Notes under the pieces: model-generated
What the model was told of the DNA's origin: nothing
The model's database searches: none
The model's input: only the letters and a program-made list of their open reading frames with translations
Program-made: the position numbers and the translations under genes
Shown here: piece by piece, positions 2,040 to 51,700 of the stretch
How positions within the stretch are numbered: the first letter of the stretch is position 1
How the letters are laid out: the number at the start of each line of letters is the position of its first letter
Source: an uncultured Methanosarcinales archaeon
Lineage (GTDB): Archaea; Nanobdellota; Nanobdellia; Woesearchaeales; UBA12501
Length of the DNA: 64,000 bases
Assembly (NCBI GenBank): GCA_964397315.1
Contig: CAYNHV010000002.1
Location: 23,167 to 87,166 of the forward strand
Reading direction: 5' to 3'

Positions 2040-2750
2040 GTGTATTATTGTTGATTTGAGGTGGTGATTTTTATTATAATATTTTCAGGTGATTCCCGGC
2101 CTCTGGAGGATGATGTTTTTATGCTTATAACTCATGGTACTTCCTTTTGGAAGAATGTGTTCCTGCTGGCTTTTCATGGTAATTCCCACCCTTGGGTAGA
2201 CGATATTTTTATGATTATGATTCCTGGTACTTCCCTCCCTTTAGGTGAGGGGGTGTTTGATTCAATTTTTCCTGATACTTCCCTCCCTTACTGCAAAACC
2301 ACCCAGCAGGTTATCTGATTCTGTCTCCGCACAACTACACTCTCCTGCCTCTAATAAGCCCACCCAATCATATGCTTAAAGCGCTCTGTGGAGTTGGTGC
2401 GCTAAGCATATGTGAGGGGGGAGGCGGGAGGGCTTTATCCAGATGTAACTGCGATTGAGGCGGTGGTTAAGCCTGGAGGAACAGAGATTGCAGAAAAAGC
2501 ATTTACAAAAATCCCTGAACAGGGAGGCGGTAAACTCTGGAAAAATTACCAGCTTTACATTAAACTTATGGCATATTGACCAAACACTATCTGAAGGGGC
2601 AAACTCTGGGGGAACACCTCTTACAAGATGGTTATCTTCAAGATTTTTTAAACAGGGCAGCGGCAAACCCCTGAAGAATGCCATTTATGGAACAATAAGT
2701 CCAACAGAGTCTCATTCTGCGGCTTTGTTCTCAGAAAAATTTTTATAGGA
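2040..2750 (+). repeat. Modular intergenic repeat element, copy A
   Basis: About four degenerate units of the tandem ~30–45 bp repeat (tttttatgattatgattcctggtacttccc-like). These are followed by the conserved core aataagcccacccaatcatatgcttaaagcgctctgtggagttggtgcgctaagcatatgtgaggggg (hairpin arms 2369..2412), then the tgtaactgcg...ggcggtgg...agcctggagg module and an aaacagggcagcggcaaacc module. Same family as copies at 11.7, 17.6, 37.7, 43.2, 46.6 and 51.4 kb. Confidence 0.8.
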
Positions 2751-2795
2751 TGCTTATTAAGGACATTTAAAAAATCATTAAGGGCATTAAAAAAG

Positions 2796-3977
2796 GTGTA
2801 TGCGATGAATCTTATACTGTTCCTGGCCGTAGTGTTCCTCATAACATTCATAGTGGGCCGCCTTCTTGAGAGGATAAGAATCCCCTGGATATTCTCTGCC
2901 CTTCTGATAGGGTTAGTGATGGCTGTCTACAATCCTGTAAAGGACGTGACATCCTCATCATCATTTCTCCTGCTTGCGGAGCTGGGCATGTATTTTCTCC
3001 TGTTCATAATAGGCTTTGAGATAGACTTCAAGGAGATAAGAAAGAGAAAGAGTTTCATCGTAAGGACAACCCTGGGAGTCATATTCGCTGAGGCTTTGCT
3101 GGGAACATTGTTCGTGCACTACGTGTTCGGCATGTCATGGATAATATCAGTCCTTGTGGCCCTCTCCTTCGCTACAGTGGGCGAGGCTGTGCTCCTTCCC
3201 ATCCTTGACGAGTTCAGGCTCACCAAGACAAGCCTGGGCCAGACAATAATAGGCATAGGTGTTCTTGACGACATTATTGAGGTCATAACAGTGATAGCGC
3301 TCAGCGTCATAGTGGGGACATCAATAGGCCACAGCAAGACACAGATATCCTTAACTCTAGGTGTGCTGGTTTTGCTTTTCGGGCTTGCATACCTCCTGAC
3401 CCTGGGCAAGGACAAGGCAGCTAAGATTCACTTCAAGGGAATAGCGTCATTCTTCCTCTTTGTGATATTCTTCATCTTCCTTTTCATAGGAATAGGCCTG
3501 CTTGCAGAGGCAGCTGCCCTGGGCGCTCTCCTGGCGGGAATAGCGCTAAAGAACTTCATACCTGAGAAGAGGCTTAAGATTGTTGATTCAGAGATAAGGA
3601 CCATGGCTTACGGCTTTTTCGCGCCCATATTCTTCCTGTGGGTGGGGCTGGACACTGACGTGATATACCTGCTGAAATATCCCCTTCTTGTTGTGGCTGT
3701 CATTGCAATAGCCAATAGCACAAAGATAATAACAAGCTATGTCATGGGAAGGAATGTCCTTGGCCCAAAAAAATCCCTCCTTCTAGGCATAAGCCTCACA
3801 GTCAAGTTCAGCACCAGTATAGTGATAATAAAGCTTCTTTTTGAGAGGGGCCTCATACCTCTCACCCTTTACTCTGTTCTTGTGGGCACCACCATACTCT
3901 TCAAGTTCATAGTGCCTTTCCTCCTCTCAACCCTCATCAAGAGGTGGAACATAACCCCCACAGGCAGGAAGCAATAG
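2796..3977 (+). CDS. Cation:proton antiporter (CPA family, Na+/H+ or K+/H+ exchanger)
   Basis: Polytopic membrane protein of about 12 TM segments with a composition typical of the Na_H_Exchanger family. Confidence 0.75.
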   Translation: MYAMNLILFLAVVFLITFIVGRLLERIRIPWIFSALLIGLVMAVYNPVKDVTSSSSFLLLAELGMYFLLFIIGFEIDFKEIRKRKSFIVRTTLGVIFAEALLGTLFVHYVFGMSWIISVLVALSFATVGEAVLLPILDEFRLTKTSLGQTIIGIGVLDDIIEVITVIALSVIVGTSIGHSKTQISLTLGVLVLLFGLAYLLTLGKDKAAKIHFKGIASFFLFVIFFIFLFIGIGLLAEAAALGALLAGIALKNFIPEKRLKIVDSEIRTMAYGFFAPIFFLWVGLDTDVIYLLKYPLLVVAVIAIANSTKIITSYVMGRNVLGPKKSLLLGISLTVKFSTSIVIIKLLFERGLIPLTLYSVLVGTTILFKFIVPFLLSTLIKRWNITPTGRKQ

Positions 3978-4041
3978 CATTCATACATCCCTGAGATGAT
4001 ATTCCAGAGAAAATATCCTAAGATAGAAACACACTAAAGGA

Positions 4042-4329
4042 TTATTCTTCCTTTATTTTTATGGCATTCTCAGGGCACTGGCTGTCGCAGGCATTGCATC
4101 CTATGCAGGCATTGGGCTTCTTGACAATAGCCTTGCCGCCCTCTATTGAGAACACGTCCATCGGGCATACGCTCGCGCATGCGCCGCAGCCGTTGCACTT
4201 CTCATTCACCACAGGATAGGGTTTTTTGCTCTCTTTTTCCTCAGCCACTTGGGTCACTTCCCTCTGACTTTTCTCTGCTTTTGCTTTTCTGGCTGCTGCC
4301 TTCTTCTGCTTTACTGCCCTGCTTTTCAT
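4042..4329 (-). CDS. 2[4Fe-4S] ferredoxin-domain protein; start uncertain
   Basis: Two CxxCxxCxxxCP motifs (CNGCGACASVCP and CIGCNACDSQCP). The Lys-rich N-terminus overlaps the 3' tail of the S3Ae gene in another frame, so the true start is probably downstream (GTG/TTG near VVNEK). Confidence 0.6.
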   Translation of the reverse strand: MKSRAVKQKKAAARKAKAEKSQREVTQVAEEKESKKPYPVVNEKCNGCGACASVCPMDVFSIEGGKAIVKKPNACIGCNACDSQCPENAIKIKEE

Positions 4330-5083
4330 GGCCTGTCTTTTTTCCAGAATCAGAATTATCCTTTTTAATCTCCTTTCCCTTCCCTGCTTCAGCCTTTGGC
4401 TCTTCCTTTTTTGTCTCTTTGCTCTCTTCCGGCTCTTCTTTTTTCTCCTGAGCCTTTCCTTCCTCTGCGGGGATTTCTTCTTTTTCCGCAGGCTTCACCC
4501 CGCCCCCTTCAAAAGACAGGATTCTTATCTCGCATATTTTTATTGGATAAATCTTCTTGAGCGCGTCCTTGAGGCTCTTCTGCAGCCTGTTATGCATCAC
4601 TTCCTGCACAAGAATGTCTCTTTTTGTGTTTTTTATCCTGTTTTTGAGGAATTCCATTGTTTTCTTTCTCAGCGCTGTTGCTGCAGAACCCTTCACATGG
4701 CCGGATGTTATGAGAAGCGGCTTTATTCTTGCCTTTTTGCTGTCAGCTGTCGTGCAGATGAAGGAGCAGTCAATCCTCTCCTTGCCTCTCCTGACAAATC
4801 TCTTTATTGAGGATGGGTTTATCTCAAAGCTTTTTACGCTGGTGTAGGCTGTCTCCCCCATAACCCGGTCTATCTCAAACACCACGTTCATGTTCTGCTT
4901 TTTCATGTCCCTGGTGAGGTGCATGAGGTTTGAGGAGATTGTCCTTCCTGCGACTATGGCAGGGTCCAGGGATGGTGTTTCTCCCACCACCTGCTCATTG
5001 AATATCTTGGGAGCCAGCACCCTGTACCATCTCTTCCTCTTCCAGGTATCCACAACCTGCCCTTTTGGCTTTGCTTTTGCCAT
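4241..5083 (-). CDS. rps3ae: 30S ribosomal protein S3Ae (eS1) with a long Lys/Glu-rich C-terminal tail
   Basis: N-terminus MAKAKPKGQVVDTWKRKRWYRVLAPKIFNE is the S3Ae signature. The core is ~205 aa, followed by ~75 aa of K/E-rich low-complexity sequence. Confidence 0.85.
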   Translation of the reverse strand: MAKAKPKGQVVDTWKRKRWYRVLAPKIFNEQVVGETPSLDPAIVAGRTISSNLMHLTRDMKKQNMNVVFEIDRVMGETAYTSVKSFEINPSSIKRFVRRGKERIDCSFICTTADSKKARIKPLLITSGHVKGSAATALRKKTMEFLKNRIKNTKRDILVQEVMHNRLQKSLKDALKKIYPIKICEIRILSFEGGGVKPAEKEEIPAEEGKAQEKKEEPEESKETKKEEPKAEAGKGKEIKKDNSDSGKKTGHEKQGSKAEEGSSQKSKSREKSEGSDPSG

Positions 5084-5155
5084 TAGAGATATACGGGAAA
5101 AGCAGCCATTTATAAATATTTCGGGATTTCGCCTCTTCAGGAGACAACAGCCCTT

Positions 5156-7940
<2,785 letters not shown>

Positions 7941-8368
7941 TTATCCTGCTTCTTGTTGAAACCCTGTATTGCTTAAATATCGCCTCTAGAAGCTCTCTAG
8001 GAGGTGTCTTGCTGGAAAGAAAGAAGACTGTTTTGTTTATAAATTTTTTGCTTGTGGAGTGGTTCCAGAGAGGCTGAGGAGCTAGAATTTGATGGTCTCA
8101 GGGTTTTTTGAATTCTGGACCAGATGTTTTTACTTGAGTCAGAATATTCAACTTTATCGTAATACTTCCGAAAAAAAATCATTTTCTTGTCCTTCTTTCA
8201 ATCTTTCAGAAAATTCTCTGTTTTAGTTGAAAGATTTTCAGATATGCCGAAAAAACTCATTTAAAAGTCAAACACCTATTAAGCACAGATACAAAGAACC
8301 TGAGAGAGGTTCTATCTGACTATACATGCCGTGATTAAGGTTAGCGGCAGCTACATAAAGGTGGAAAA

Positions 8369-9715: not shown

Positions 9716-10089
9716 TGAAAGTGTTTGTAGCAGTGAAATTTGACAAAGAAGGGGGAGAGGACAGGATAAGCACAATCAAGAGCTGCTTGAAAGAGAGAGG
9801 GCAAGAGCCTTCTTTTTTTGTTGAGAAAGGGGAATACACAAACAAGAAAGAGATGATGAAAGATGTTGTTGAGGAGATTAAAAACAGCGAAGCCCTTCTG
9901 GCGGACATATCTGAAGGGGCGGTTGGGGTGAGTATTGAAGCAGGGATAGCTTACGCGCTGGGAAAGCCGGTTTATGTGGTGCACAAGGAGGGCTCCAGAA
10001 TATCTTCAACAATGAGGGGCATCAGCAGAAATATTCTTGAATACAAAGATGCAAGAGATATACCTCTTGTGCTTGAAACAGGGGTTTAG
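9715..10089 (+). CDS. Nucleoside 2-deoxyribosyltransferase-like small Rossmann protein
   Basis: 124 aa. GxxxEAGxAxALGKPV pattern typical of the NDT-like superfamily. ATG overlaps the rSAM stop (ATAATGA), so the two are translationally coupled. Confidence 0.45.
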   Translation: MKVFVAVKFDKEGGEDRISTIKSCLKERGQEPSFFVEKGEYTNKKEMMKDVVEEIKNSEALLADISEGAVGVSIEAGIAYALGKPVYVVHKEGSRISSTMRGISRNILEYKDARDIPLVLETGV

Positions 10090-11699: not shown

Positions 11700-12110
11700 A
11701 GACAATCTCATGAGTGAGGATTATGAAAGGATAATGCTGCCCAGAGCATTATTTAAAGCTTATAATACCTCCTAAGATTGTCACTGCCCTGTTTATGAGC
11801 TTTAAGAATGATGCTAATTGTAAGAATGGAAATTCATCCAGATGTTGCCATCCACCCCCTTCAACAGCTTGAGCGCACCAACCACAGAAAGCACTTTAAG
11901 CATATCATCGGGCGGGCTTATCTATGGCAGGGGAGTGGAGTTGTGCGGAGACAGAAGGTGTGAACCTGCTCTCTGGTTGTGCAGAAGGGGCGGGATGTAC
12001 CAGGAATCATAACCATAAACAAACCACTCCAAGGGCGGGAGGACTCCGGAGTTAATAAGAATAGAATATCGTCTCCTCATCTTATATTATCTCCCCGCCT
12101 TTAATCCGCA
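11700..12110 (-). repeat. Modular intergenic repeat element, copy G (minus orientation)
   Basis: Reverse complement of 11882..11920 reads ataagcccgcccgatgatatgcttaaagtgctttctgtggttggtgcgctcaagctgttgaagggg. The reverse strand also carries ttatgattcctggtacatcccgcccc, ccgcacaactcc and aaacagggcagtgacaatc modules. Lies upstream of the minus-strand protease/RimK operon. Confidence 0.75.
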
Positions 12111-16204: not shown

Positions 16205-17485
16205 TCAGTCCTGCACTGCAGTGGCCATCATGTCATCAAATGTCTCTCTTCTTCTTATCATCCTGGCCTTCCCGCTGCTCACCATGACCTCCGCCGGCCT
16301 TGGCCTGGTGTTGTAGTTTGATGACATTGAGTAGCCGTACGCCCCTGCATTAAGTATGGCCAGTATGTCACCTTCTTCCACTCTTGTTATCTCCCTGTCC
16401 TCAATGCCCTCCTCTGACTGGGTGAATACGTCGCCTGACTCGCAGATGTTGCCTGCAACAACAATCTTCTCCTTCTCTCCCTCAACCCTTGATGCGTTGA
16501 TTATGGAGTGGTAGCTGCCGTACATTGCCGGCCTTATGAGGTGGTTGAATCCTGAGTCAGTGCCCACAAAGACATGATTGGGTGTCTCTTTCCTGTTGCT
16601 GGCTGTGGCAAGAAGATATCCTGCTTCTGCGACAATGTACCTGCCGGGCTCTATTGCCATGTCAGGCTCGCTCCCATAGCTGTCGCAGAACTCCCTGAAA
16701 AGCCCTGATATCTCCTTCCCGAATTTCTGGATGTCAATCTGCTTCTCCTCAGGCCTGTAGGGAACCCCTATCCCCCCTCCAAAGTCAATGAATTCAAGGC
16801 CCTCAAACTGGCCTGCGGTTTTCAGGAGCATTCTCATTGCTTTCTTGAATGTCTCAGTGTCAAGTATTCCTGATCCTATGTGGGTGTGTATTCCCCTTAT
16901 CCTGAGGCCGCGCTTTTCTGCTGCTGACTTTATCTCATTTACCATGTCATGGTAGATTCCGAACTTTGAGTCAGGCCCGCCTGTTATGCAGTGGGAGTGA
17001 TGGCCTGCTCCCACGTCAGGGTTTATTCTTACTGAGATGTCCGCGCCGCTGTTGAGCCTGCCGTACCTCTCCATTTGCGAGAGCGAGCCTATGTTCACCA
17101 TGATGCTGTTGTCAATGCAGTGCTTCATGTCCTCGTCTGTAGCATTGTTTCCTGTGTAGAGTATCCTTTCAGGAGGGAAGCCGCACCTGAGCGCCACGTC
17201 AACCTCTCCTGGAGAGACTGCATCAACGTAAGCTCCCCTGTCAAGAAGCAGCTTCATTACCGCAGGGTTGGTGTTCGCCTTGCACGCGTAGTATATCCTT
17301 TTCCTGGGCCATGTTATTGCCCTGTCAAGATCGTCATATCTCTGCTTTATTATCCTCTCATCATAAGCGTAGATGGGGCTTCCGAACTCCCTTACAAGAT
17401 CCTCTGCGCTCGCTCCGCCTATGAGCAGCTTGTTGTTTTTTGTTTCCATGATGTCACCCTCATTAAGGCTGTTCCTTGCCTGCAT
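16205..17485 (-). CDS. lysA: Diaminopimelate decarboxylase (start may be an internal Met)
   Basis: Orn/DAP/Arg decarboxylase family II; PLP-lysine region YYACKAN; EPGRY and CESGD motifs. Confidence 0.9.
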   Translation of the reverse strand: MQARNSLNEGDIMETKNNKLLIGGASAEDLVREFGSPIYAYDERIIKQRYDDLDRAITWPRKRIYYACKANTNPAVMKLLLDRGAYVDAVSPGEVDVALRCGFPPERILYTGNNATDEDMKHCIDNSIMVNIGSLSQMERYGRLNSGADISVRINPDVGAGHHSHCITGGPDSKFGIYHDMVNEIKSAAEKRGLRIRGIHTHIGSGILDTETFKKAMRMLLKTAGQFEGLEFIDFGGGIGVPYRPEEKQIDIQKFGKEISGLFREFCDSYGSEPDMAIEPGRYIVAEAGYLLATASNRKETPNHVFVGTDSGFNHLIRPAMYGSYHSIINASRVEGEKEKIVVAGNICESGDVFTQSEEGIEDREITRVEEGDILAILNAGAYGYSMSSNYNTRPRPAEVMVSSGKARMIRRRETFDDMMATAVQD

Positions 17486-17569
17486 TTAAATAATTTTCCG
17501 GCTATAAGGGGATAATGCTCTGGCAGTTTTTCTCCAGCCGCTCCAACCATTAAAGAGATGTATTTTTGT

Positions 17570-17925
17570 TGAATCCTCATGGTAATCCATGTCCTTTTAG
17601 TGAGGAAATGTTTAAGTTAGTAATTCCTGGTGCTCCCCTGAGGGATAATAGATTTATGATAATAACTCCTGGTACTTCCCACCCTTACTGCAGAACCAGA
17701 CAGCGGGCTTACTGCTTCTGAAACAGCACAACTTCGCTCTTCTCTTTCCAATAAGCCCGCCCCTTAATTTGCTTGGGTGCGCTCTGGCTGGGGTTTGTGC
17801 TCTCAGGCTGTGTATGGGGGCGGGGAGGCGAGCGAAGCAGTTGTAACTCTGAACATGGCGGCGGCAATGTCAGGAAGATCTGTTATCCCTGGCTTAACCT
17901 GTCTCTTGTGAGCCCTGGCAAACTC
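17570..17925 (+). repeat. Modular intergenic repeat element, copy B (more diverged)
   Basis: Modules present: ataataactcctggtacttcccacccttactgcagaacc...cacaacttcgctcttctctttccaataagcccgcc...gggggcgggg...tgtaactctgaacatggcggcggcaatgtcaggaag. The catatgctta stem is degraded. Lies between the lysA start and the asd stop. Confidence 0.7.
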
Positions 17926-18950
17926 TATTTATCCTTGTTCTTTCTTATTATAAATTCTGCTATCTGCACTGCATTCAGCGCAGCTCCCTTTAGCAGCTGG
18001 TCTCCTGAGACAAAGAACTCAACGCTGTTCTTTCCCAGCACTATGTTGTTCCTTATCCTTCCAACCTCAACATCGCTTTTTTTAGTGGATGTGAGAGGCA
18101 TTGGATATATGCTGCCGGAGGGATCATCCCTTACTTCAACTCCTTCTGTATCCTCAAGCAGCTCCCTGAGCTTTCCTGTGTCAACAGGCTTCTCTGTTTC
18201 CGCAATTATGCTCTCTGAGTGGGCCCTCATGGTGGGTATCCTCACTGCAGTGCATGATATGGGAAGTGAGGGGGTGTTGAATATCTTTCTTGTCTCCCAC
18301 ACCACCTTCATCTCCTCTTTTGTGTAATCATTGTCCTGGAAAGAGTCTATGTGGGGTATGACATTGAATGCTATTGGGTGCTGGAATACCTCATGGCCCG
18401 GCTCTTTTCCCTCAAGCCAGTTCCTTGTCTCTTTCTCAAGCTCTTCCATCCCCCCGTTGCCAGCTCCGCTTGCTGCCTGGTAGGTGGATACAAAAACTTT
18501 CTTCAGGCTGAAATTCCTGTGTACGACCCATAGGGGTATTGCAGCTATTGCTGTGGTGCAGTTGGGGTTTGCTATCAGCTTTGAATCGCCTATTGCCTCA
18601 GGGTTTATCTCAGGCACCACAAGAGGGACGTTCTTCTCATATCTGAAAGCTGATGAGTTGTCTATCACAATGCACCCCTGCTCTGCTACCCTGCCTGCGT
18701 TCTCTTTTGACCATGAGCTGCTTATTGCAAAGAACGCTATGTCCAGGTCTGAGTAATCTGCATTTGAGGAGTCCTCCACAACAAGCTCTCCCTGAGGAGT
18801 CTCAATCTTTTTTCCTGCTGACCTTGAGGATGCGAACAGCCTCAGTGAAGAGAAGGGAACCTTCCTCTCAAGAATCACCTTGATGAGCTCCTTTCCCACT
18901 GCCCCTGTTGCTCCGAATATACCTATCCTTGGCCTGCCCATGTCCCTCAT
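17925..18950 (-). CDS. asd: Aspartate-semialdehyde dehydrogenase
   Basis: NAD(P)-binding IGIFGATGAVG; active-site region NPNCTT; 341 aa. Confidence 0.9.
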   Translation of the reverse strand: MRDMGRPRIGIFGATGAVGKELIKVILERKVPFSSLRLFASSRSAGKKIETPQGELVVEDSSNADYSDLDIAFFAISSSWSKENAGRVAEQGCIVIDNSSAFRYEKNVPLVVPEINPEAIGDSKLIANPNCTTAIAAIPLWVVHRNFSLKKVFVSTYQAASGAGNGGMEELEKETRNWLEGKEPGHEVFQHPIAFNVIPHIDSFQDNDYTKEEMKVVWETRKIFNTPSLPISCTAVRIPTMRAHSESIIAETEKPVDTGKLRELLEDTEGVEVRDDPSGSIYPMPLTSTKKSDVEVGRIRNNIVLGKNSVEFFVSGDQLLKGAALNAVQIAEFIIRKNKDK

Positions 18951-36211: not shown

Positions 36212-36622
36212 TCAATAAGCCTCTAATTCCCCAGTCACCTTGTCTATCCTCCTCTCGCTCTCCGGCCCTATTCCAACGCATGTAACAGTTCCCGATTTCA
36301 CAACAGTCTTTCCAGCATCAGCAATCTCAACAGCAACAAGGTCATTCTCATGCGCAAGTTTCTTGTATCTATTTAACTCATCCAAATCCTTAACCCTGAG
36401 AACAACCTTCATCATGCCAGTGTCTTTCCATTTATTGACGAGCTCCTTCCTGCCTGTTGACTGAGACTCCAGGACTGCAGAGACAGAAGCGTGAGCAGCC
36501 TGAGCAGCCATCTTGCCCTTGGGCAGCTTAAGGTCCTCCCTGACTATTATAGCCTGCTTGTACCTGCTCCTGTCCGCAGCTCCGGCAATGGCTTTCTTTA
36601 TCCTGTTAACAACAGATTTCAT
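36212..36622 (-). CDS. pth2: Peptidyl-tRNA hydrolase, archaeal/eukaryal type
   Basis: KQAIIVREDLKLPKGKMAAQAAHAS...VVLRVKD...VEIADAGKT is the Pth2 signature; 136 aa. Confidence 0.85.
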   Translation of the reverse strand: MKSVVNRIKKAIAGAADRSRYKQAIIVREDLKLPKGKMAAQAAHASVSAVLESQSTGRKELVNKWKDTGMMKVVLRVKDLDELNRYKKLAHENDLVAVEIADAGKTVVKSGTVTCVGIGPESERRIDKVTGELEAY

Positions 36623-37686
36623 CTTTGCTTGTCTCTCCTTGGAAGGTATCTGGGCTCAACAAGGTCAGGTATCCTGTCAATGAACCTCGCGTAATACACG
36701 CTGACCTTGCCGTAATAAAGCCTGTCAATGCTGTATTTCTTTAAATAGTTTTTGACCTTGAAATAACCATTGAGGTACTTGTAATCCTTTGTCAGCCCCC
36801 CATGCTGAGACGTATCTGACAATCCCCTTTTTGCCCTGACTGTTATCCTCCACGCCTTGTCCCTGCTGAAGTGGGTCTTCATCCTGTTGTATACCTCTCT
36901 GAATGAATGGTCCTGGGCAAGGTGGACTGCCACAACCCTTCCTGCGTAAACCCTTAAAGTGCCCTTGCTGAGAACCCCTGCTTTCTCCTCATTCACTGCA
37001 GCAAGGCCCTCCTCTGTCTCAAGATAGCCTGGCAGGCCGGATGCAAACACCCTGTATGGCTGCAGCATGCCGTTCTCATACCTCAAAACATGGGTGCCTA
37101 TCTCATGGGCTATGAGGCGCCTTATGAAATCGTTGGAGAACATCTTGCCCTTCTTGAGCAGCACCCTTCTCTTTGACTGCTGCACAGCAGCATTGGCAGT
37201 CATCAGCTTCTGCCTTACCTCCCAGTTGAAGCCGTAAACCTTCAGGGCCTCCCTGAGCATATCAGCCACTTCCTTGGGGGACAGTTTCGCGGACTTCTTC
37301 TGCCCCTCTCTGTAGCGCAGTATCCTTCTTGCTTTTTTCACCAGAGTCCTGCCGGGCCTGCCGTAAACCTTCAGGGAGCTGGCCTTGAAATCCTCAGAGC
37401 CTACTGAGCCGAGCATGTTAAGGGTTCTCACGTAGCTGTCCCTCTTGTGCCTTAGAATCTGGCCCACATAGCTCCTCTTCATCTTCAGCGAATCAAGCCT
37501 GCTTATTGCAGCATCAATGTTGATCCTGGGAGGGGAATACCTGAATATCGGCTCGTAAGACCTGCTTGAAAAGAATTTCTTTCTCTCCTTCCACTCATTG
37601 ACAGGGTTTACTGCGAGAAAGGATATCCTTCTTCCTATCCTGTACAGCTCCCTGTCAACCTCTTTAAGTATAACCTTCTTTGCCAT
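36619..37686 (-). CDS. DUF1704-family (QEGLA-motif) putative metallopeptidase
   Basis: IAHEIGTHV (HExxH-like) and TEEGLAAV (QEGLA-like) motifs. Start set at the internal Met (MAKKVILKE); the ORF extends to 37758. Overlaps pth2 by 4 nt. Confidence 0.55.
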   Translation of the reverse strand: MAKKVILKEVDRELYRIGRRISFLAVNPVNEWKERKKFFSSRSYEPIFRYSPPRINIDAAISRLDSLKMKRSYVGQILRHKRDSYVRTLNMLGSVGSEDFKASSLKVYGRPGRTLVKKARRILRYREGQKKSAKLSPKEVADMLREALKVYGFNWEVRQKLMTANAAVQQSKRRVLLKKGKMFSNDFIRRLIAHEIGTHVLRYENGMLQPYRVFASGLPGYLETEEGLAAVNEEKAGVLSKGTLRVYAGRVVAVHLAQDHSFREVYNRMKTHFSRDKAWRITVRAKRGLSDTSQHGGLTKDYKYLNGYFKVKNYLKKYSIDRLYYGKVSVYYARFIDRIPDLVEPRYLPRRDKQR

Positions 37687-37739
37687 GCTGATTTTAGTGT
37701 GATAATATGTATTTAAATGTTGCTTTAGGAAGAGGGTTT

Positions 37740-38400
37740 GTTTATGATTATGATTCATGGTGCTTCCCTGGAAATGGAAAAATTATGATTATTATCCCAG
37801 GTGCTTTCCGCTATTTAGAGAATTTGCTTGTGTTTATGATTCCAGATTCCACCCTCCCTTAGGTTTGTTTATTATTATGATTCCTGGTGCTTCCCTGGGA
37901 ATATTGAGTTTATGATTGTTACTCCAGGTGCTTCCCAGAGGGGTAATGGGTTTGCGATTATTATTCCTGGTAATTCCCACCCTCTGGAAGATAATGTTTT
38001 TATGGTTATAATTCATAGTACTTCCCTCCCTTTCTCCAGAACCATCAGGCAGGTTTTTTCCTTCTGGAACAGCACAACTCTCTGCTTCCGCCTCCAATAA
38101 GCCCACCCAATCATATGCTTAAAGCGCTCTGTGTGGGTTGGTGCGCTCAAGCTGTTGAAGGGGGCGGTGGGTGGGTCAAAGCGGCTGTAACTGCGAGTGG
38201 GGGTGGAGGATAAGTCTGGATTAATCACAATATTTAGAGGAGACTCAATTTTGTAGTACTCATACGCTTAAAGCGCGCTTTTTGTGGAATTTCACTGCGC
38301 TCACTCCCACCTGCGCGTGAACTGCGCAATGCCGTTCTGGTGGAGAAATAAGAAGGATTTATTATATTCATAAAACTAAATTCAGAGGGAGTTAACAATA
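37740..38400 (+). repeat. Modular intergenic repeat element, copy C
   Basis: About seven tandem degenerate units (gtttatgattatgattcatggtgcttccctgg...). Core ccaataagcccacccaatcatatgcttaaagcgctctgtgtgggttggtgcgctcaagctgttgaagggggcgg at 38094..38165, then ggctgtaactgcg...ctggattaatc...cgcgtgaactgcgcaatgccgttctggtggagaa. Immediately upstream of corA. Confidence 0.8.
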
Positions 38401-43189: not shown

Positions 43190-43700
43190 CTGTATTTAAG
43201 AGGGTATGCTTATTATTCCTGATACTTCCCTGGGAATCTTGAGTTTATGATTGTTATTTCTGGTACTTCCAGCTATTTAGAGAATTTGCTTGTGCTTATG
43301 ATTCCAGATTCCTCCCACCCTTACTGCAGAACCGCCTCGCAGGTTTTTTCCTTCCAAAACCGCACAACTTTCCTCTTCTGCTTCCAATAAGCCCGCCCAA
43401 TCATATGCTTAAAGCGCTCTGTGGGTTGGTGCTCTGAGCATATGTGAGGGGGATGGAGGGTGGGATTTGTCCATCTGTAACTGTGATAAGGGAGGTGGAG
43501 AACTCTGGATTAATCAAAACACTTAGAAGATGCTCAATTTCGTGGAATTTCGCTGCGCTTAATCCCACCTACGCGTGAACAGAGTAACGCCGTTCCGGTG
43601 GAGAACTCAGGAGGGATCCCCTTTTTACAAGGAGCTAGGTTTGGATTAACCAGAATAATCAATGCAGTCCTGCCAGAATAAGCCCTCACAAATCCAAAAT
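43190..43700 (+). repeat. Modular intergenic repeat element, copy D
   Basis: Tandem units (attattcctgatacttccctggg..., gtttatgattgttatttctggtacttcc...). Core ccaataagcccgcccaatcatatgcttaaagcgctctgtgggttggtgctctgagcatatgtgagggggatgg at 43385..43455, then ctgtaactgtg...ctctggattaatc...cgcgtgaacagagtaacgccgttccggtggagaa (shared with copy C). Upstream of the MoxR gene. Confidence 0.8.
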
Positions 43701-43749
43701 TTTATAAATGATGATTATAGTATCATAGCCAGCCAGAAGAGGGTTTATC

Positions 43750-45874: not shown

Positions 45875-46403
45875 CCCTGCTGTAGAGCTCTTCAGATATT
45901 ATGTCGATTGACGGCTTGTTTGCTGTGATATAGACCATATCATTCCCATGGCCGATGAATATCCTGCTCCATGGGTCAATCCTTGAACTGTGTATTGAAC
46001 CCATCACAGCCCTTGACTGATCATCTCTTGTGAATCTTGTTTCTGTATTGAGCAGCTCCTCTGCAAAGGGCCTGAAAAGCGAGACAGGGACTATGCTCAG
46101 GCTTTCCTTATGGTATGCCAGGTCAGTTCCATTGCTTCCTGTTATCTTGTTTACTGTTTCCCTGAACAAAAGGCTTGCAGGGTATTCCATTATTATCGCA
46201 TCATCAGGCTGGCAGCCGCAGCTTGTGTTGACATCCTTTATCATCCTTGTGTAAGCTGGAGGAAGCCAGAGCCTTCCTGAACGTACTTTGTGCTTTCCTG
46301 GCTGCATCTCAGGCAGCCTCTCAGCTGCGTAAAGAACAATGTCCCTGAGGCTTTTGCTGCTCATGAGAGAGGTTTTGTTGTCATGATATATAAAATTAAC
46401 CAC
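45843..46403 (-). CDS. Hypothetical protein (186 aa)
   Basis: ORF convergent with the VWA gene and overlapping it by ~30 nt. No recognisable motifs. Confidence 0.35.
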   Translation of the reverse strand: MVNFIYHDNKTSLMSSKSLRDIVLYAAERLPEMQPGKHKVRSGRLWLPPAYTRMIKDVNTSCGCQPDDAIIMEYPASLLFRETVNKITGSNGTDLAYHKESLSIVPVSLFRPFAEELLNTETRFTRDDQSRAVMGSIHSSRIDPWSRIFIGHGNDMVYITANKPSIDIISEELYSRVMPHYGNPQV

Positions 46404-46488
46404 TAAAAGATAGATAACTTTTAGGCAAAAGATTTATATACTTCAAAGACTATAATATATAACATAAAACTTCCAAAGGGGGTGAGTT

Positions 46489-46602
46489 ATGGAAGTCAGA
46501 TGCCTTGAATGCGGGGAAATCGCAAGGCAGATAGGCCATGAGGTCTACTACTGCGACGAGTGCGACAAGATAATACCAGCAGAGAAGGAGATACTTGCAT
46601 GA
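46489..46602 (+). CDS. Small zinc-ribbon protein (37 aa)
   Basis: MEVRCLECGEIARQIGHEVYYCDECDKIIPAEKEILA carries two CxxC pairs. A GGGGGTGAG SD-like sequence lies 6 nt upstream. Not in the supplied ORF track (below its length cutoff). Confidence 0.4.
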   Translation: MEVRCLECGEIARQIGHEVYYCDECDKIIPAEKEILA

Positions 46603-46639
46603 AGTGTTTCCCGCAGCAGGAAAAAGCTTATGTTCTTGC

Positions 46640-47290
46640 AGGCTGTGCTTTAGGTGGTATGATGAGGAGTTTATTATTGTGATTCTAGATTTTCCATCTG
46701 GGTAATAATCTTGTGAATCTTATTCCTGATAATTCCCCAGCTATTTAAAGAATTTGCTTGTGCTTATGATTCCAGATTCCTCCCACCCTTACTGCACAAC
46801 CGCCTCGCAGGTTCACACCTTCTGTTTCTGCACAACTTTCCTCTTCTGCTTCTAATAAGCCCGCCCAATGATATGCTTAAAGTGCTCTGAGTGGGTTGGT
46901 GTGATTAGCATATGCATGGGGGAGGAGATTGCCAAACGAAGTTTGGCAATTCTAATACTGCAAAACAAAGTTTTGCAGGCCTGAAAATACTTTGTATTTT
47001 CAGTAATCCCAGACGCTTGACTAAGCGAAGCTTAGGCAAGTCTTATAATTTCGACTTCAGTCGGAATTATATTTAAGCTTGCGAGTCGGGATTATTTTTA
47101 GGCGGGACAAAGCGGTTGTAACTCTAAAGAGGGCGGTGGTAATGCCTGGAAAAGAATACCTCTTTCGCATTAAGCTTATTGCAGAGCTGAACATAACCTG
47201 AACAGGGTGGAGGTAAACTCTGGAGGAATACCTTTTACAAAAAGTCCATCTCCAAGATTTTCTAAACAGGGCAGAGAACTCCCTTGTGAT
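46640..47290 (+). repeat. Modular intergenic repeat element, copy E
   Basis: Tandem units, then core ctaataagcccgcccaatgatatgcttaaagtgctctgagtgggttggtgtgattagcatatgcatggggg at 46853..46925. Followed by an extra insert holding the hairpin aagcttgcgagtcgggattat (also in copy F), then gttgtaactctaaagagggcggtggtaatgcctggaaaag and aaacagggcagagaactcc. Upstream of the phosphoesterase gene. Confidence 0.8.
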
Positions 47291-47339
47291 TGCTTTTCCC
47301 ATCAAAAGCTTTAAAAACAGCTGTTTTCTCTTGCCCTCC

Positions 47340-47936
47340 ATGAGAGTACTCGCGTTTGTTGACACTCACGGAAGCACAAAGGCCCTGAAGGCAGTGGCTG
47401 ACAAGGCAAAGAAAAAGGATGTTGACATTCTCATATGCGCGGGAGACGTGACAATCTTTGAGCAGGAGCTTGAGAAGATAATAAAGAAGCTGGACAAGCT
47501 CGGCAAGCCCGTGCTGATAATACCCGGCAACCACGAGTCTGAGGAGAGCCTGAGAAAGGCCACGAAAAAGACAAAGAACATGATCTACATCCACAGGGGC
47601 ATGCTGAAGCTCAAGGGATACACTTTCATAGGCTTTGCAGGCGACGGATTCGCGCTTGACGACCCTGAATTTGAGAAGTGGGGCAAGAAAGTGAAGAAGG
47701 AGCTGAAGAAGAAGGAGAAGGTCGTTCTCATAACCCACGCTCCCCCGCACAAGACAAGGCTTGACCTTGTGATGGAAAGCCACTGCGGGAACAAGGCAGT
47801 GAGGAAGTTCATAGAAAAGGTTGACATTGTCCTCGCAATCTCAGGCCACATCCACGAGACAGCAGGAGTAGAGGACAAGGTGAAGAACACCAAGGTGGTC
47901 AACCCCGGCCCTTACGGCAAGGTGTTTGAGATATGA
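47340..47936 (+). CDS. Calcineurin-like metallophosphoesterase
   Basis: MRVLAFVDTHGS, ILICAGDV, IPGNHE, THAPP and ISGHIHE phosphoesterase motifs. The ORF starts at 47286; the likely Met start is 47340. Confidence 0.8.
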   Translation: MRVLAFVDTHGSTKALKAVADKAKKKDVDILICAGDVTIFEQELEKIIKKLDKLGKPVLIIPGNHESEESLRKATKKTKNMIYIHRGMLKLKGYTFIGFAGDGFALDDPEFEKWGKKVKKELKKKEKVVLITHAPPHKTRLDLVMESHCGNKAVRKFIEKVDIVLAISGHIHETAGVEDKVKNTKVVNPGPYGKVFEI

Positions 47937-47945
47937 GTTTATGCC

Positions 47946-48764
47946 TCACAATGTCTGCTCAATCTTTCCGGCATATTCTATTCTCCTGAGCATATGATTC
48001 AAAAACTGTCCCCTGAATTCCTTTGTTCCGGGGCTGAGTGTTGCCTCAAGCAGGTTCACGTAATTTGAGTATTCCTCAGGAAGCTTCGCATCCAGGGCAT
48101 TCATGCACAGGGTGTCAAGATGTAACGCCTTCTTTATCCTTGCTGTTTCCGCGGCGTAATCCCCAAGCGCCTGGTGCCACAATGCCCAGGCGTTCCTGAA
48201 AAAGCTCTCTCTTCCGCTGTCAGTTTCCTCAAACAGGGAGCAGTAGAAATCATTCTCTGCAGCAATGAGATGGGAGGAGACGTAAAGCCTGTTGAGCGCT
48301 TCAAACATATGCACTCCAAACCCCATGACCAGCTCGTCAAATTTTCTTTCCGGAAGCTGGACTTGCTCGTCATAAAGGTATGACCTTGTTATCTCCTGAG
48401 CGAATATGCTGAACATCAGCCTGACGGACTCGGGAGATAAATCCTCATGATCAGCTTCTTCCTCAAAACACCAGAACGCATACTCTCCTATTATCTCTTG
48501 AGACCTCCTTATGCCAGGAGGTATGTCAGCAGCAGATGAAAGCTTGTCCCTGAAGATGCTGAACCTGCTGCTGTTTATCTCAGCAGGCCCGGTCTCCAGG
48601 GCGTAAATGAGCTCCCCTGATAATCTTGAGGGATACCTCTCCTTCTGCTCTTTCTGCGCTTTCCCCAGCTTTTCCCTGAGCAGCTTATGCCTCACCTTAT
48701 GCTCTGCTAGCTTCCTGTTTGTGTCCTCAAGATAGCCGTCAATAACGTCAAAAGCCATTTTCAC
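47946..48764 (-). CDS. Hypothetical protein (272 aa) coupled to taw1
   Basis: Start overlaps the taw1 stop by 4 nt. No recognisable motifs. Confidence 0.4.
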   Translation of the reverse strand: MKMAFDVIDGYLEDTNRKLAEHKVRHKLLREKLGKAQKEQKERYPSRLSGELIYALETGPAEINSSRFSIFRDKLSSAADIPPGIRRSQEIIGEYAFWCFEEEADHEDLSPESVRLMFSIFAQEITRSYLYDEQVQLPERKFDELVMGFGVHMFEALNRLYVSSHLIAAENDFYCSLFEETDSGRESFFRNAWALWHQALGDYAAETARIKKALHLDTLCMNALDAKLPEEYSNYVNLLEATLSPGTKEFRGQFLNHMLRRIEYAGKIEQTL

Positions 48765-49702
48765 TGCGCTCCTCCTTTCAAAAACCTCTCCCTTTTAGAG
48801 CCTTTCTTCATCATCAGCACCACCCTTGACTCAGGCTGCTCGTCAGCAATCCTGTAAGAGCAGCGCTTCTCTATCTCCCTTGCGAACTCAACAACCTCAT
48901 GATGCCTGGGCATGTTCCTTATTGAAAGCTTCAGCCTTGAGTGGCCCACGAACATATAGGCCTTGACCTCAAGAAAGTCAGGCTCTGCTTTTTCTATCAA
49001 TCCTGCGTAATTCTCAGGCTCAGCCATGTTCTTTTCCTTGACAAGGGTTATCCTTATGGCAGTTCTTGTTTTCTTCTTCAGCTTTTTCAGGGCTTCAAGG
49101 GACTTGTTCAGCCTCTCCCAGCCGTCCCTGTTCAGGGGCCTGCACACTTCCCTGTATATTTTTTTATTCGGAGCATCAAGGGAAAGATAAAGCTGAGTTG
49201 GAGGCTCCAGCTTTTCCATCACATCAGGCAGCTGGCCGTTTGTGACAACAAAGCTTGTGCAGCCCCTCCTCTTGAGCTCTCTTATCAGGCTGTTCAGTCT
49301 CGGGTAGTAGAGTGTCTCTCCTGTGAGGGATATGGCGAACTGGTTGGGGTTCATGGCCTCCTCCAGCTTCTTCTTGCTGATCTTTTCATGGCCTCCCATG
49401 CCTGAGAGAAGGAGCCTGTGCTGGGCTATGGAGTTCTCAATAATCTCCTCAGGAGCATCAACAGACTTGAAGGGCTCCTGGTATCTCTTTCTCCAGCAGA
49501 AGATGCAGTCCTGGTCGCAGTAGTTCACTGTAACAGATATCTGGCAGCACCTGTGGGATTCAATGCCGTAAAACCTCTGCTTGTAGCAGTGGCCCCGGCC
49601 TGTAAGGGACTTCTTTGTCCAGGAGCATATCTTGACAGCAGAGTGCTCTCCTGTGAAGCGGTACTGCTGCTTCTCAAGCTCCTTTTTATAGTCAGGGTCC
49701 AT
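48761..49702 (-). CDS. taw1: tRNA 4-demethylwyosine synthase (radical SAM, TYW1/Taw1)
   Basis: Radical SAM CDQDCIFCWR plus the N-terminal second Fe-S cluster cysteines (KICSW...GHCY). 313 aa, archaeal Taw1 length. Confidence 0.8.
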   Translation of the reverse strand: MDPDYKKELEKQQYRFTGEHSAVKICSWTKKSLTGRGHCYKQRFYGIESHRCCQISVTVNYCDQDCIFCWRKRYQEPFKSVDAPEEIIENSIAQHRLLLSGMGGHEKISKKKLEEAMNPNQFAISLTGETLYYPRLNSLIRELKRRGCTSFVVTNGQLPDVMEKLEPPTQLYLSLDAPNKKIYREVCRPLNRDGWERLNKSLEALKKLKKKTRTAIRITLVKEKNMAEPENYAGLIEKAEPDFLEVKAYMFVGHSRLKLSIRNMPRHHEVVEFAREIEKRCSYRIADEQPESRVVLMMKKGSKRERFLKGGAQ

Positions 49703-49779
49703 ATGACACTCCCTTGCAGGGTGATATAAATAACTTACCGCAAACTATATAAATCCATCCTTGGAAAAAGCTTTATAAA

Positions 49780-49932
49780 GCGCCAGTAGTCTAATGGTTA
49801 GGATATGGCCTTGCCACGCGTTAGATTTGCAAGCAAATCCACTGGGTTTGCGCTTAACGCGCAAACAGGCTGTGGTCCGGGTTCAAAAGGGTTTGGGAGA
49901 GATCCCCCTCAATGAAAGTCCCGGCTGGCGCA
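49780..49932 (+). tRNA. tRNA-Gly (anticodon GCC) with two introns
   Basis: Acceptor stem GCGCCAG/CTGGCGC with discriminator A. D-arm GTCT-AATGGTTA-GGAT. Anticodon stem TGGCC/GGCTG with loop TTGCCA. A ~50-nt intron containing two hairpins (gatttgc/gcaaatc and gtttgcgc/gcgcaaac) interrupts the anticodon loop. T-arm CCGGG-TTCAAA...CCCGG carries a second ~30-nt insert. Coordinates are approximate (±2). Confidence 0.55.
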
Positions 49933-49974
49933 TGTTTACTCATCAGATTCCTGAAACAATCACCACTACTCCGC

Positions 49975-50910
49975 TTATTGAAGATGCTTAACCTGCATCT
50001 CCTCGAGTTCAGACTGCAACTTCTTCTCTTTTTCTGCCAGCTCATCAATCCTTGCCATTGCTTCATCATAAGCTTCCCTGTCTCCCTCTCTGGATGATTT
50101 CTCAGCTTTCTGGTTTGCCTCCAGCAGGTTCAGGTATAACCTTATCAGCTCAGCTTTTTTTGATGCTGCCATTCTTAGCTCAGAGAAATTTGTTGATGAG
50201 GGAAAGAATTCAGGATTAGGTATTTTCTGTTCTGCAAGCCTTCCGCATATGCCTACAGTCTCATTTAAGCTGTTCAAGCTGATATTAAGTTGTTCCTCTG
50301 CTTTCTCGTTATACTCCTCAAAGGTTATGTTCTTGCGGGAGGTGTAATCCTGATTCAATCTCTGGAATCTGGAGAATGCCCTGCTGCTTCTTTCGGTCAG
50401 CTCTGTGATGTTCTGCATTGAAGGGATAAAAACCTCATCATAATCCCTGAAAGCAGAGTAATACTCAGAAGAACTATGGTCCACTATGCCTATTGTGTGA
50501 GGTATATTTGTGAAGAACAACAGACCTAAGAGTATTATGACAACAGCATAAGAGGCAGCCCTGATAACAAACAGCTTCTTGTTGTAGGTTGAGAGCCTCC
50601 TGTAGCTCTGAAGGATGATTATTGAGCTGATTATGAGAACGATGATTATTAAAGCGAAACCGCCTACTAAAGCGTAGAGGATGGGAGTGATCTTCATCAT
50701 GCTGAAGTTTCCTGTCTTTGAGCTGATATAGAATCTCAGAAAGAAAAGCACTGCGAGAATCACCACAATTATTGCAACAGAGACTCCGGCGAATATTCTG
50801 GTGTTCCTTATCCTCTTTTTCAGGGTCTCGTCATTGTAGGGCTGGTCCTTAATCTTCTGGTCAAGGTTTGAGAGGTCCGGCGCCCCACCGCCCTGCTCCT
50901 CATCTTCCAT
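49975..50910 (-). CDS. Membrane protein with a C-terminal coiled coil (311 aa)
   Basis: Several TM helices followed by a long coiled-coil region; unknown function. Confidence 0.4.
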   Translation of the reverse strand: MEDEEQGGGAPDLSNLDQKIKDQPYNDETLKKRIRNTRIFAGVSVAIIVVILAVLFFLRFYISSKTGNFSMMKITPILYALVGGFALIIIVLIISSIIILQSYRRLSTYNKKLFVIRAASYAVVIILLGLLFFTNIPHTIGIVDHSSSEYYSAFRDYDEVFIPSMQNITELTERSSRAFSRFQRLNQDYTSRKNITFEEYNEKAEEQLNISLNSLNETVGICGRLAEQKIPNPEFFPSSTNFSELRMAASKKAELIRLYLNLLEANQKAEKSSREGDREAYDEAMARIDELAEKEKKLQSELEEMQVKHLQ

Positions 50911-50988
50911 TGGTCATGAGAAAGCCTGTTTATTATATAAATATTTCTGAGAAAATTTTATAAATAGGGTCTTTTTAAGCGGGAATAA

Positions 50989-51198
50989 GGGCCATTAGCT
51001 TAGTCTGGCAACTGGTTACGCTCAGTTGACACGCAAACGCAAGAGGGGCGTAAAACTGCGTTTTAGCCCCTCGACGAACGTGAGATTTGAGCGTCAGTTG
51101 GGCAATTGGAGCACTGCTCTTATATGACTGTGTTCCGCGCAATGCTGGACACTGCTTGAGCAAAGCAGCGGTCGGGGGTTCAAATCCCCTATGGCCCA
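50989..51198 (+). tRNA. tRNA gene with two large introns (D-loop ~95 nt and anticodon loop ~38 nt); anticodon appears to be UAU (Ile) but is uncertain
   Basis: Acceptor GGGCCAT/ATGGCCC with discriminator A. T-arm GGGGG-TTCAAAT-CCCCT. Anticodon stem CTGCT/AGCAG with loop CTTATA|intron|A. D-stem GCTT/GAGC flanks a ~95-nt insertion. 210 nt minus ~133 nt of introns gives ~77 nt mature. Confidence 0.5.
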
Positions 51199-51290
51199 TT
51201 TTTTATTCGTACCACCGAGCAAAGCGAGTGTGGTACCTGATGGCCGGGTCAAGGAAGAAGACCCTTGGTTCTGAATCCCCTATGGCCCAT
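51183..51290 (+). repeat. att-like direct repeat: the tRNA 3'-end 17-mer AATCCCCTATGGCCCAT occurs twice (51183..51199 and 51274..51290)
   Basis: Exact 17-nt duplication. The second copy is preceded by a degenerate copy of the tRNA 3' half (gagcaaagc...ggttctgaatcccctatggccca). Confidence 0.6.
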
Positions 51291-51399
51291 GGAATAAAGG
51301 CAAAACGCCGATGAAGTCGGCTTTTTGCCTTTTTATATGCCTGATAATCCCGATGAGCTTGCGAGTCGGGATTATCTATGCATTTTATTTCCCATGATA

Positions 51400-51700
51400 T
51401 ATTCCACCTTATATGCATTTGTTTTGGGTGATTCCTCATAGTAATTCCCGCCCTCACTTTACAACCAACAGGCAGGTTCATACCTTCTCCAACTGCACAA
51501 CTCCCTGCTTCTCGCCCCAATAAGCCCGCCCAATGATATGCTTAAAGTGCTCTGAGTGGGTTTGTGCGCTAAGCATATGTGAGGGGGTTGGGTGGCGGGC
51601 GAAGAGGTTTGTATAGCTAAACATGGCGGCGGCAATGCCAGGAGGAATCAGATTTTTATTAGACTAAACTCAGGAGGCATCCCCTTACATTAAATGAGCA
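51400..51700 (+). repeat. Modular intergenic repeat element, copy F
   Basis: Short tandem-unit remnant (tgattcctcatagtaattcccgccc). Core ccccaataagcccgcccaatgatatgcttaaagtgctctgagtgggtttgtgcgctaagcatatgtgagggggttggg at 51519..51590, then gctaaacatggcggcggcaatgccaggagg. Preceded by the hairpin taatcccgatgagcttgcgagtcgggatta. Upstream of the tRNA at 51842. Confidence 0.8.

Follow-up and report, generated by a model that had tools for sequence, protein, structure and literature searches.

A mosaic, hairpin-containing repeat in the intergenic spacers of a Woesearchaeota-like archaeon

Seven copies of one intergenic element

This report concerns a stretch of 64,000 nucleotides of contig CAYNHV010000002.1 (assembly GCA_964397315.1), hereafter the window, and a modular repeat that recurs in its intergenic spacers. 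The window is a piece of ordinary archaeal chromosome, with gyrB (interrupted by an intein), class I LysRS, aspartokinase, a dapB-dapA-asd cluster, corA, mscS and a DRG-type GTPase among its genes, and the named relatives of its proteins are mostly labelled Candidatus Woesearchaeota (64-71% identity). An earlier note on this DNA proposed that seven of its spacers hold copies of one modular non-coding element, and both of our searches agree. Self-BLAST of the window yields 28 local alignments, which link seven regions with 70-85% identity over 140-450 bp, and a covariance model built from the conserved core of ~153 nt, run over the window, returns exactly seven matches (128-159 bits, E <=1e-27) and no eighth copy above noise. 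By chance 0.00 matches would be expected to the 35-nt hairpin pattern and 0.09 to the 18-nt unit pattern. The copies are 300-650 bp long, occupy about 6% of the window and are all confined to intergenic spacers; six of the seven lie on one DNA strand. Spacers that bear a copy measure 430-810 bp, while typical spacers of the window measure 30-150 bp. The copies are lettered A to G by position, B being the one on the minus strand, and are listed here with their array of 5' units, self-BLAST region, core and most conserved block.

Copy A, 2040..2690 (+): five 5' units (anchors 2082, 2130, 2172, 2220, 2268); self-BLAST region 2208-2477; core 2277-2428; block 2354-2420
Copy B, 11780..12085 (-): two units, one by profile and one degenerate unit read by eye; self-BLAST region 11847-12023 (-); core 11847-11998 (-); block 11855-11921 (minus)
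Copy C, 17560..17924 (+): two to three units and one 3' module; self-BLAST region 17644-17878; core 17674-17828; block 17751-17820
Copy D, 37722..38375 (+): seven units and a tail of ~200 bp common to E; self-BLAST region 37956-38220; core 38020-38172; block 38097..38164 (+)
Copy E, 43190..43667 (+): three units and the tail common to D; self-BLAST region 43244-43509; core 43310-43460; block 43387-43452
Copy F, 46625..47280 (+): two to three units, with the TGTAAC/GGCGG module 3' of an insertion, followed by the tail common to A; self-BLAST region 46711-46928; core 46778-46930; block 46855-46922
Copy G, 51380..51730 (+): one to three degenerate units, one 3' unit and a short tail; self-BLAST region 51435-51646; core 51443-51595; block 51520-51587
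Small hairpin module, 51343..51376 (+): GATAATCCCGAtgagcttgcgagTCGGGATTATC, free-standing, upstream of G

One genome per species (185,579 species) was searched with an exact pattern that covers two invariant blocks, and true relatives came to light only in the metagenome-assembled genome (MAG) JAWOBY01 (Ca. Woesearchaeota BLK3-3.bin.38). This second genome has four full cores and one weak partial core, spread over three short contigs; two of these contigs end in the element or beside it. Statistics given below for 11 copies combine the seven copies of the window with those of the second genome (among them K3b, K5 and K7). The material examined amounts to 64 kb of one genome and 10 kb of the other.

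Modules and mosaic structure

Each copy opens with an array of degenerate tandem units. A profile of this 5' unit finds 21 units in the window, all on the strand of their own core and spaced 41-48 bp apart, i.e. one to seven per copy, or two to seven when degenerate units read by eye are added, in keeping with the two to about seven of the earlier description. Tandem Repeats Finder misses these arrays, which are too degenerate for it. The remaining modules of that description are likewise present: the TGTAAC...GGCGGNGG module, the hairpin core and the optional tails. The first of these occurs in six copies and is missing from B, which has no TGTAAC/GGCGG module and whose short tail holds AAACAGGGCAG.

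Features of the core are two GCACAAC-type boxes, the block ATAAGCCCRCCC, a hairpin at its centre whose GGGTTKGT loop is conserved, and a G-rich tract; the GCACAAC-type box occurs in both orientations. Conservation is highest in the block listed above, which in copy D consists of ATAAGCCCRCCC followed by hairpin P2 (ATGCTT..AAGC arms, GGGTTKGT loop) and GGGGG. Long invariant blocks are also seen in the MAFFT alignment of the copies. Across the 11 copies 54 columns are invariant, against a mean column identity of 72%; short blocks are thus identical in every copy of both genomes despite an overall likeness of about 70-85%.

Tails are common to the pairs A/F, D/E and K3b/K5. That of copy A, common to F, comprises four GGCGG..CTGGARGAAT 3' units. 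Tail sharing by subsets had been described before under other letters, and the two accounts coincide if the six plus-strand copies are there read as A-F in order and the minus-strand copy as G. The array of D carries in its middle a 'last unit' of the E/F type, and copies of one genome resemble each other more than copies across genomes, although the F/K5 subtype spans both. Arrays of this structure suggest unequal recombination or gene conversion. In the second genome a diverged core of a second type follows both K3b and K5 (166 nt, 73% identical to each other), and contig L003 carries at 2190-2742 (-) two full cores in tandem, ~253 bp apart, before it ends inside the element.

Two copies are enlarged at the same point of the G-rich tract, F by ~175 bp of perfect short hairpins (46925-47100) and K5 by ~95 bp. 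Both insertions consist of perfect hairpins only, several of which are closed by UUCG, GAA or UUCA loops, and may be read either as expansion segments tolerated by an RNA or as nested insertion of small palindromic elements. Within F, at 46925-47075, the palindromes are perfect over 9-12 bp with loops of 3-4 nt: TTGCCAAAC-GAA-GTTTGGCAA, CTGCAAAAC-AAA-GTTTTGCAG, CTGAAAATAC-TTT-GTATTTTCAG, CTAAGC-GAA-GCTTAG and TATAATTTCGAC-TTCA-GTCGGAATTATA. The sequence AATCCC(A)GAyGAGCTTGCGAGTCGGGATTAT, a small hairpin module, is found in three contexts in the two genomes, namely free-standing at 51343-51376, at ~47066-47096 in F and at ~1351-1398 of contig L005 in K5. Between these contexts and genomes it is 92-100% identical, and therefore far more conserved than its host element; it may be a separate REP-like mini-repeat.

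Neighbouring genes, promoters and orientation

The genes named earlier as neighbours of the copies were confirmed in their identity. Copy A lies between a divergent gene (start ~1993, minus) and a Na+/H+ exchanger gene (2805+), B between panD (12144+, translation read by eye) and a Zn-protease/RimK operon (11634-), and D between a MATCAP-like gene (start ~37683, minus) and corA (38497+). Copy C fills the 440-bp gap between lysA (16205-17485, minus) and asd (17925-18950, minus) and is antisense to both. Copy E is situated 3' of a co-oriented gene of 262 aa and 5' of a MoxR-type AAA gene (43750+), F 3' of a 37-aa zinc-ribbon open reading frame (ORF; 46490-46603+) and 5' of a metallophosphoesterase gene (ATG 47340), and G between two intron-bearing tRNA genes (~50984-51199 and 51842-51977, the second read by eye).

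A promoter matrix was derived from 44 gene starts of the window (consensus GAAAGA-TTTATAAA). Many genes of the window are leaderless, judging from a TATA box 30-33 nt before the ATG. Every gene downstream of a copy has a B recognition element (BRE)/TATA box of its own, which scores 10-14 bits and lies 30-49 nt (mostly 30-33) before the start, between element and gene. The copies are not part of a 5' untranslated region made from the neighbouring genes' own promoters.

The 5' units had been called TATA-like, but as sense promoters they score near background (median 1.7 bits; real promoters reach 9.5 and random windows -0.9), and tandem promoters in the units were rejected on this ground. On the reverse complement the median rises to 6.4 and the maximum to 11.3 bits, 12 of 23 units exceeding the 95th percentile of random windows, and some 3' units hold rightward TTTACAAAAA boxes at 10.2 and 10.8 bits. 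With the genome's own matrix no sense-strand promoter was found upstream of the cores, nor was a consistent terminator found. In five copies (A, B, C, D and K7) the leftward gene has its BRE/TATA box directly at the left end of the element. A portable promoter at this end was considered and rejected, the left-flank promoters of A, B and D being no more alike than unrelated promoters.

It is true, as stated earlier, that six of the seven copies are co-oriented with a downstream gene, but this count carries little weight. Three copies (A, B and D) are flanked by divergent genes, so that either orientation is co-oriented with one neighbour, and are therefore uninformative; the four informative copies stand in spacers of tandem genes, E, F and G in the orientation of the gene on their 3' side and C antisense. 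None of the seven lies between convergent genes, an outcome with a chance of ~13% if about a quarter of spacers are taken to be convergent (15 of 72 in a crude map), so that a targeting of promoter regions, as formerly suggested, is not shown. Given the divergent spacers and the three of four informative copies, the orientation bias is no evidence for a leader or for promoter targeting.

The central hairpin and tests of RNA structure

The inverted repeat around the GGGTTKGT loop is part of the minimum-energy fold in nine of the 11 copies (mean z against shuffles -2.0), and in ten it is more stable on the sense strand of the element (Wilcoxon p = 0.007), a difference owed to G.U pairs. Its arms are GCTTAAAGCGC/GCGCTAAGC in the window copies, and K3b has a perfect 13-bp helix, ATGCTGGGAGTAC/GTGCTCTCAGCAT. 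Cells of the alignment are paired in 80% of cases, against 23-43% in controls with the partners slid. Covariation in fixed columns gives weak statistics, because the register of the helix slides: there are four doubly changed pairs, a number reached by 79 of 500 shuffles, and a covariation score of 0.111 against 0.086, which 37 of 500 shuffles reach. The whole core folds no better than its shuffles (z = -0.08).

RNAalifold proposes to pair the invariant GCACAACT with the invariant loop GGGTTKGTGC, and the C-rich boxes with the G-tract. Both sides of this long-range pairing are invariant. Base pairs between the two halves, C-rich on the 5' side and G-rich on the 3' side, were considered and rejected: cognate halves fit no better than non-cognate ones (p = 0.74), and reading the alignment by eye revealed no covariation of the nucleotide opposite the variable N/R position. 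With covariation non-significant and long-range pairing generic, the signal of a structured RNA is suggestive only.

Searched against Rfam 15 at the gathering threshold, the whole window yields one tRNA only; permissive searches of A, D-F and the related loci add nothing but a chance match to TCL6_1 (22 bits, the threshold being 60). No family thus matches the elements at either setting. Several known classes were rejected from the sequences themselves. An archaeal C/D-box small RNA is contradicted by the C-box UGAU, which is present in just four of 11 copies, the others having AAUCAU or UAAUAU. The units are too degenerate for a CRISPR array, and the 13-19 nt between their conserved parts are themselves repeated. 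Motif order or conservation does not suit origin recognition boxes (ORB) of replication origins, and canonical four-run G-quadruplex motifs are absent from most copies.

Lineage-specific gain

This lineage has acquired the copies: they are missing from relatives, and C and D are situated at synteny breakpoints. With the covariance model of the core, the element is absent from seven loci of the closest available relatives (~64 kb). Pattern scans of JGI metagenomes and IMG/VR gave chance matches only, without support from BLAST or the covariance model. Three relatives have at the corA locus the order MATCAP(-), NUDIX(+), corA(+) with spacers of 50-80 bp, whereas in the window copy D takes the place of NUDIX; a NUDIX remnant under copy D was looked for and not found. 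A relative with the same order dapB-dapA-asd-lysA-aminotransferase has a spacer of 1 nt between asd and lysA, compared with the 440 bp that hold copy C in the window. The two lysA (diaminopimelate decarboxylase) genes are 31% identical (that of the relative at 6022-7287 of contig L026), the asd genes 69%, which suggests a gene displacement at the junction holding copy C.

Public short-read assemblies of the same organism (Logan contigs) break inside elements, and a contig of the second genome ends inside one, so that the repeats limit assembly.

Other features of the window

The tRNA genes on either side of copy G (50984-51199 and 51842-51977) contain long insertions or introns at non-canonical positions, and ARAGORN finds neither. 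Rfam fits the first over 51100-51198 only (30.6 bits, with an insertion of 40 nt); the second has perfect acceptor and T arms, ~60 extra nt and a TATA box ~30 nt upstream. The 3' end of the first tRNA (ggttcaaatcccctatggccca, 51178-51199) has a near-copy some 70 bp further downstream (ggttctgaatcccctatggccca, 51268-51290), which looks like an attachment site left over from integration or excision. Within the second tRNA (51863-51890), GCACAACC followed by GGCCAATCAT resembles the element boxes GCACAACY and GCCCAATCAT, probably by coincidence.

A probable integrated element (52043-64000) adjoins the second tRNA from ~52 kb on. Besides many ORFs for which Pfam has no match, it encodes a HerA/DUF87 ATPase (56278-58320) and a tyrosine integrase with a zinc ribbon (from the ATG at 52043 to 53255), and Logan contig L016 extends it past the 3' end of the window with genes for SSB, ArdC-N/peptidase M78 and DUF1883. 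No copy of the repeat was found in this integrated element, L016 included.

The intein of gyrB (5517-7925, minus) corresponds to an Intein_splicing domain at residues 451-599. The 37-codon ORF upstream of copy F (46490-46603, plus) has two CxxC pairs (MEVRCLECGEIARQIGHEVYYCDECDKIIPAEKEILA), a promoter of 16.3 bits and a GGGGTGA box before its ATG, and probably encodes a real small zinc-ribbon protein. The gene at 36619-37683 (minus) is an archaeal homologue of MATCAP (microtubule-associated tyrosine carboxypeptidase), which adjoins corA in relatives too. Homology and a TATA box at 37713-37720 place its start at ~37683; the ORF list extends it to 37758.

Discussion

We interpret the family as a lineage-specific, non-autonomous and non-coding mosaic interspersed repeat with a BOX/BIME/ERIC-like architecture, in which short blocks are under purifying selection, and put the probability of this reading at roughly one half. 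The copies would have spread by a process at the DNA level, driven in trans by an enzyme (recombinase or transposase) whose gene lies elsewhere, and for which the strand-asymmetric central hairpin and the invariant blocks may serve as recognition sites. Arrays could grow and shrink by slippage or unequal recombination, modules could be exchanged between copies by ectopic recombination or gene conversion, and copies would survive at harmless sites, either between promoters or upstream of them. Where read-through transcription reaches them, the hairpin and the G-rich tract may affect neighbouring transcripts, as for bacterial BOX, ERIC and BIME.

Several observations weigh against this interpretation, besides the limited scope given above. 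No convincing terminal inverted repeats were found in the copies. Target-site duplications were not visible on direct reading of the flanks, and no direct repeat borders any of A-G, although the ends of the element are fuzzy and the test is soft for that reason. Neither the window nor the related loci contain a candidate transposase, and no recent copy of more than 90% identity was seen. Both C and D sit at remodelled junctions and not at clean insertions, and since lysA is only 31% identical to its counterpart, a simple insertion is not proven. Finally, copies whose identity is as low as 70% and which yet keep invariant blocks, together with insertions made of UUCG/GAA hairpins only, suit a functional RNA no less than a selfish repeat. 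The former suggestion of an element resembling MITEs (miniature inverted-repeat transposable elements) or short interspersed elements thus stands as far as dispersal, lineage specificity and gain are concerned, but not for terminal inverted repeats or target-site duplications. A profile search for inverted 5' units finds none, even at E <=10, and local complementarity between 5' and 3' parts is only 72-87% over 13-26 nt; a foldback or long-palindrome model was rejected, its test being significant (z > 4) in just two of 11 copies. No RAYT, TnpA or TnpB gene was seen in the window, and the GTAG/CGTC head of REP elements is absent from the arms of the core hairpin (CATATGCTTAAAGCGC).

Among the alternatives, an independently transcribed family of structured non-coding RNA of ~200-350 nt, with the core as functional RNA and the insertions as peripheral expansion segments, appears unlikely, even though it accounts for a good deal. 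The hairpin is kept by different sequences in K3b and the window, it is stabilised on the sense strand, its cells are paired far above the slid controls, the blocks are invariant across two genomes, the insertions of F and K5 are self-contained capped hairpins at one fixed site, and the invariant GCACAACT is complementary to the invariant loop. These points have to be set against the lack of a sense promoter above any core and of a consistent terminator, the non-significant covariation, the halves without co-evolution, the unremarkable fold of the whole core, the absence of an Rfam match and a density of about one copy per 9 kb, which would be unusual for a trans-acting RNA. For the RNA proposed in the earlier note, with its conserved hairpin, the case is weak. 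Rather improbable, too, is a cis-acting DNA cassette, in which arrays of protein sites or weak outward promoters flank the core and have been duplicated to many promoters. It agrees with the presence of at least one gene start in the spacer of every copy, with left ends that abut leftward BRE/TATA boxes, with the scores of the reverse-complement units and the 3' TTTACAAAAA boxes, and with a GCACAAC-type box recurring in both orientations. However, each flanking gene has a stronger canonical promoter, the functions of these genes are unrelated, the left-flank promoters are not significantly alike, and the absence of convergent spacers is within reach of chance. Moreover, core insertions of 95-175 bp (F, K5) would disturb a fixed spacing, and the units, 41-48 bp apart, are not separated by a constant number of helical turns.

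That the element is a 5' leader (also proposed in the earlier note), a riboswitch or an attenuator, transcribed together with the gene downstream, is very improbable. Six of the seven copies are co-oriented with a gene, two of these genes encode ion transporters, and alternative pairings are conceivable (C-rich boxes with the G-tract, GCACAACT with the loop); but a canonical BRE/TATA box separates the element from each start, mostly at leaderless distance, C is antisense to both neighbours, and copies in divergent spacers carry no information on orientation. The genes concerned are heterogeneous (tRNA, protease, AAA ATPase, phosphoesterase, and in the other genome, as their N-terminal sequences read by eye indicate, ProRS and a GT2 glycosyltransferase), and orthologues in relatives do without the element (corA; asd directly followed by a lysA-type gene). 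A small protein, encoded by 29-35 codons that start with an ATG of the last unit and stop at the invariant TAA of AATAAGCCC, is hardly credible. The frame is open from a unit ATG/GTG to this TAA in five of the seven window copies, but open frames are expected by chance in so pyrimidine-rich a region; A and C have premature stops, the copies of the other genome are shifted by 1-nt indels and without start codon, and variation shows no 3-base periodicity (p = 0.13). As to a recent segmental duplication of flanking genes, nothing speaks in its favour: similarity stops at the borders of the element and the flanking genes are unrelated, which leaves its probability close to nil.

The mosaic repeat that we favour has its closest architectural parallel in the BOX elements of S. 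pneumoniae and S. suis, composites of the type boxA-boxB(n)-boxC that have alternative end modules and receive nested insertions (PMC3049150). The two families alike are multi-copy and non-coding, lie in intergenic DNA, combine fixed modules with a variable tandem array of ~45-bp units, have alternative end modules that define subfamilies, show nesting of elements and would form stem-loops if transcribed; for neither is the mobilising enzyme certain, and copies of both look old or 'dormant'. The present element differs in its archaeal host, in an array at the 5' end and not between end modules, and in the lack of terminal inverted repeats. This likeness is one of architecture, judged by description, and membership is not claimed. 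Pneumococcal repeats are furthermore enriched between convergent genes (PMC3049150), where none of the seven present copies lies.

Bacterial interspersed mosaic elements (BIME), repetitive extragenic palindromes (REP) and enterobacterial repetitive intergenic consensus sequences (ERIC) share with the present family a mosaic of short motifs, the intergenic position and imperfect palindromes acting at transcript level, and ERIC occurs also in longer variants, enlarged by insertions at fixed internal positions, as in F and K5. REP are palindromes of 20-40 bp with a GTAG or CGTC head, mobilised by RAYT, and ERIC is a single palindrome of 127 bp. In contrast, the present core is not palindromic overall, a single hairpin stands at its centre, and the sub-repeats are direct instead of inverted; the small hairpin module at 51343-51376 is closer to REP than the large element is.

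An internal variable tandem array is known from a MITE of Porphyromonas gingivalis that contains a minisatellite (PMC4596501), and SM1-SM4 of Sulfolobus are MITEs (cited in PMC10969869). Like MITEs, the present element is small, non-coding, multi-copy, intergenic and lineage-specific, being present or absent between genomes (seven copies in the window, four to five in the second MAG). It differs from them in that terminal inverted repeats and target-site duplications were not found and no cognate insertion sequence is known. Palindrome-associated elements derived from IS200/IS605 have neither of these two features and possess a strand-specific imperfect hairpin that tolerates G.T pairs; they carry sub-terminal hairpins at both ends and use a fixed target tetranucleotide. 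The present repeat resembles them in the lack of terminal inverted repeats and target-site duplications, the strand-specific hairpin and the strand bias (6/7), and departs from them in its central hairpin, fuzzy ends, tandem sub-repeats and the absence of TnpA/TnpB.

Conclusions

Small interspersed repeats are well described in bacteria and little studied in archaea. Of MITEs, only few families are known in archaea (PMC10969869), and our literature search found no description of such repeats for DPANN/Woesearchaeota-like lineages. A heavy load, ~6%, amid spacers of 30-150 bp suggests either efficient spread without the usual hallmarks of a transposon or a function for the host. Synteny is broken where C and D lie, and assemblies are interrupted at the repeats; a role of the family in genome rearrangement and a limiting effect on MAG contiguity in this lineage are therefore probable. 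We further consider, as a distinctly speculative idea, that the core is an undescribed large structured RNA, present in very high copy (about one per 9 kb) in a small archaeal genome, with a pseudoknot between the GCACAACU box and the loop GGGUUKGUGC and a tolerance of hairpin expansion segments. If so, it could be e.g. an omega-RNA- or bridge-RNA-like component of an RNA-guided or RNA-mediated mobile element, or a retro-mobile RNA, and the DNA repeat would be the trace of an RNA-based system, for mobility or regulation, that is so far not known from archaea. Should the invariant blocks prove to be RNA or the recognition site of a new recombinase, they would provide a handle on an unknown archaeal mobility system.

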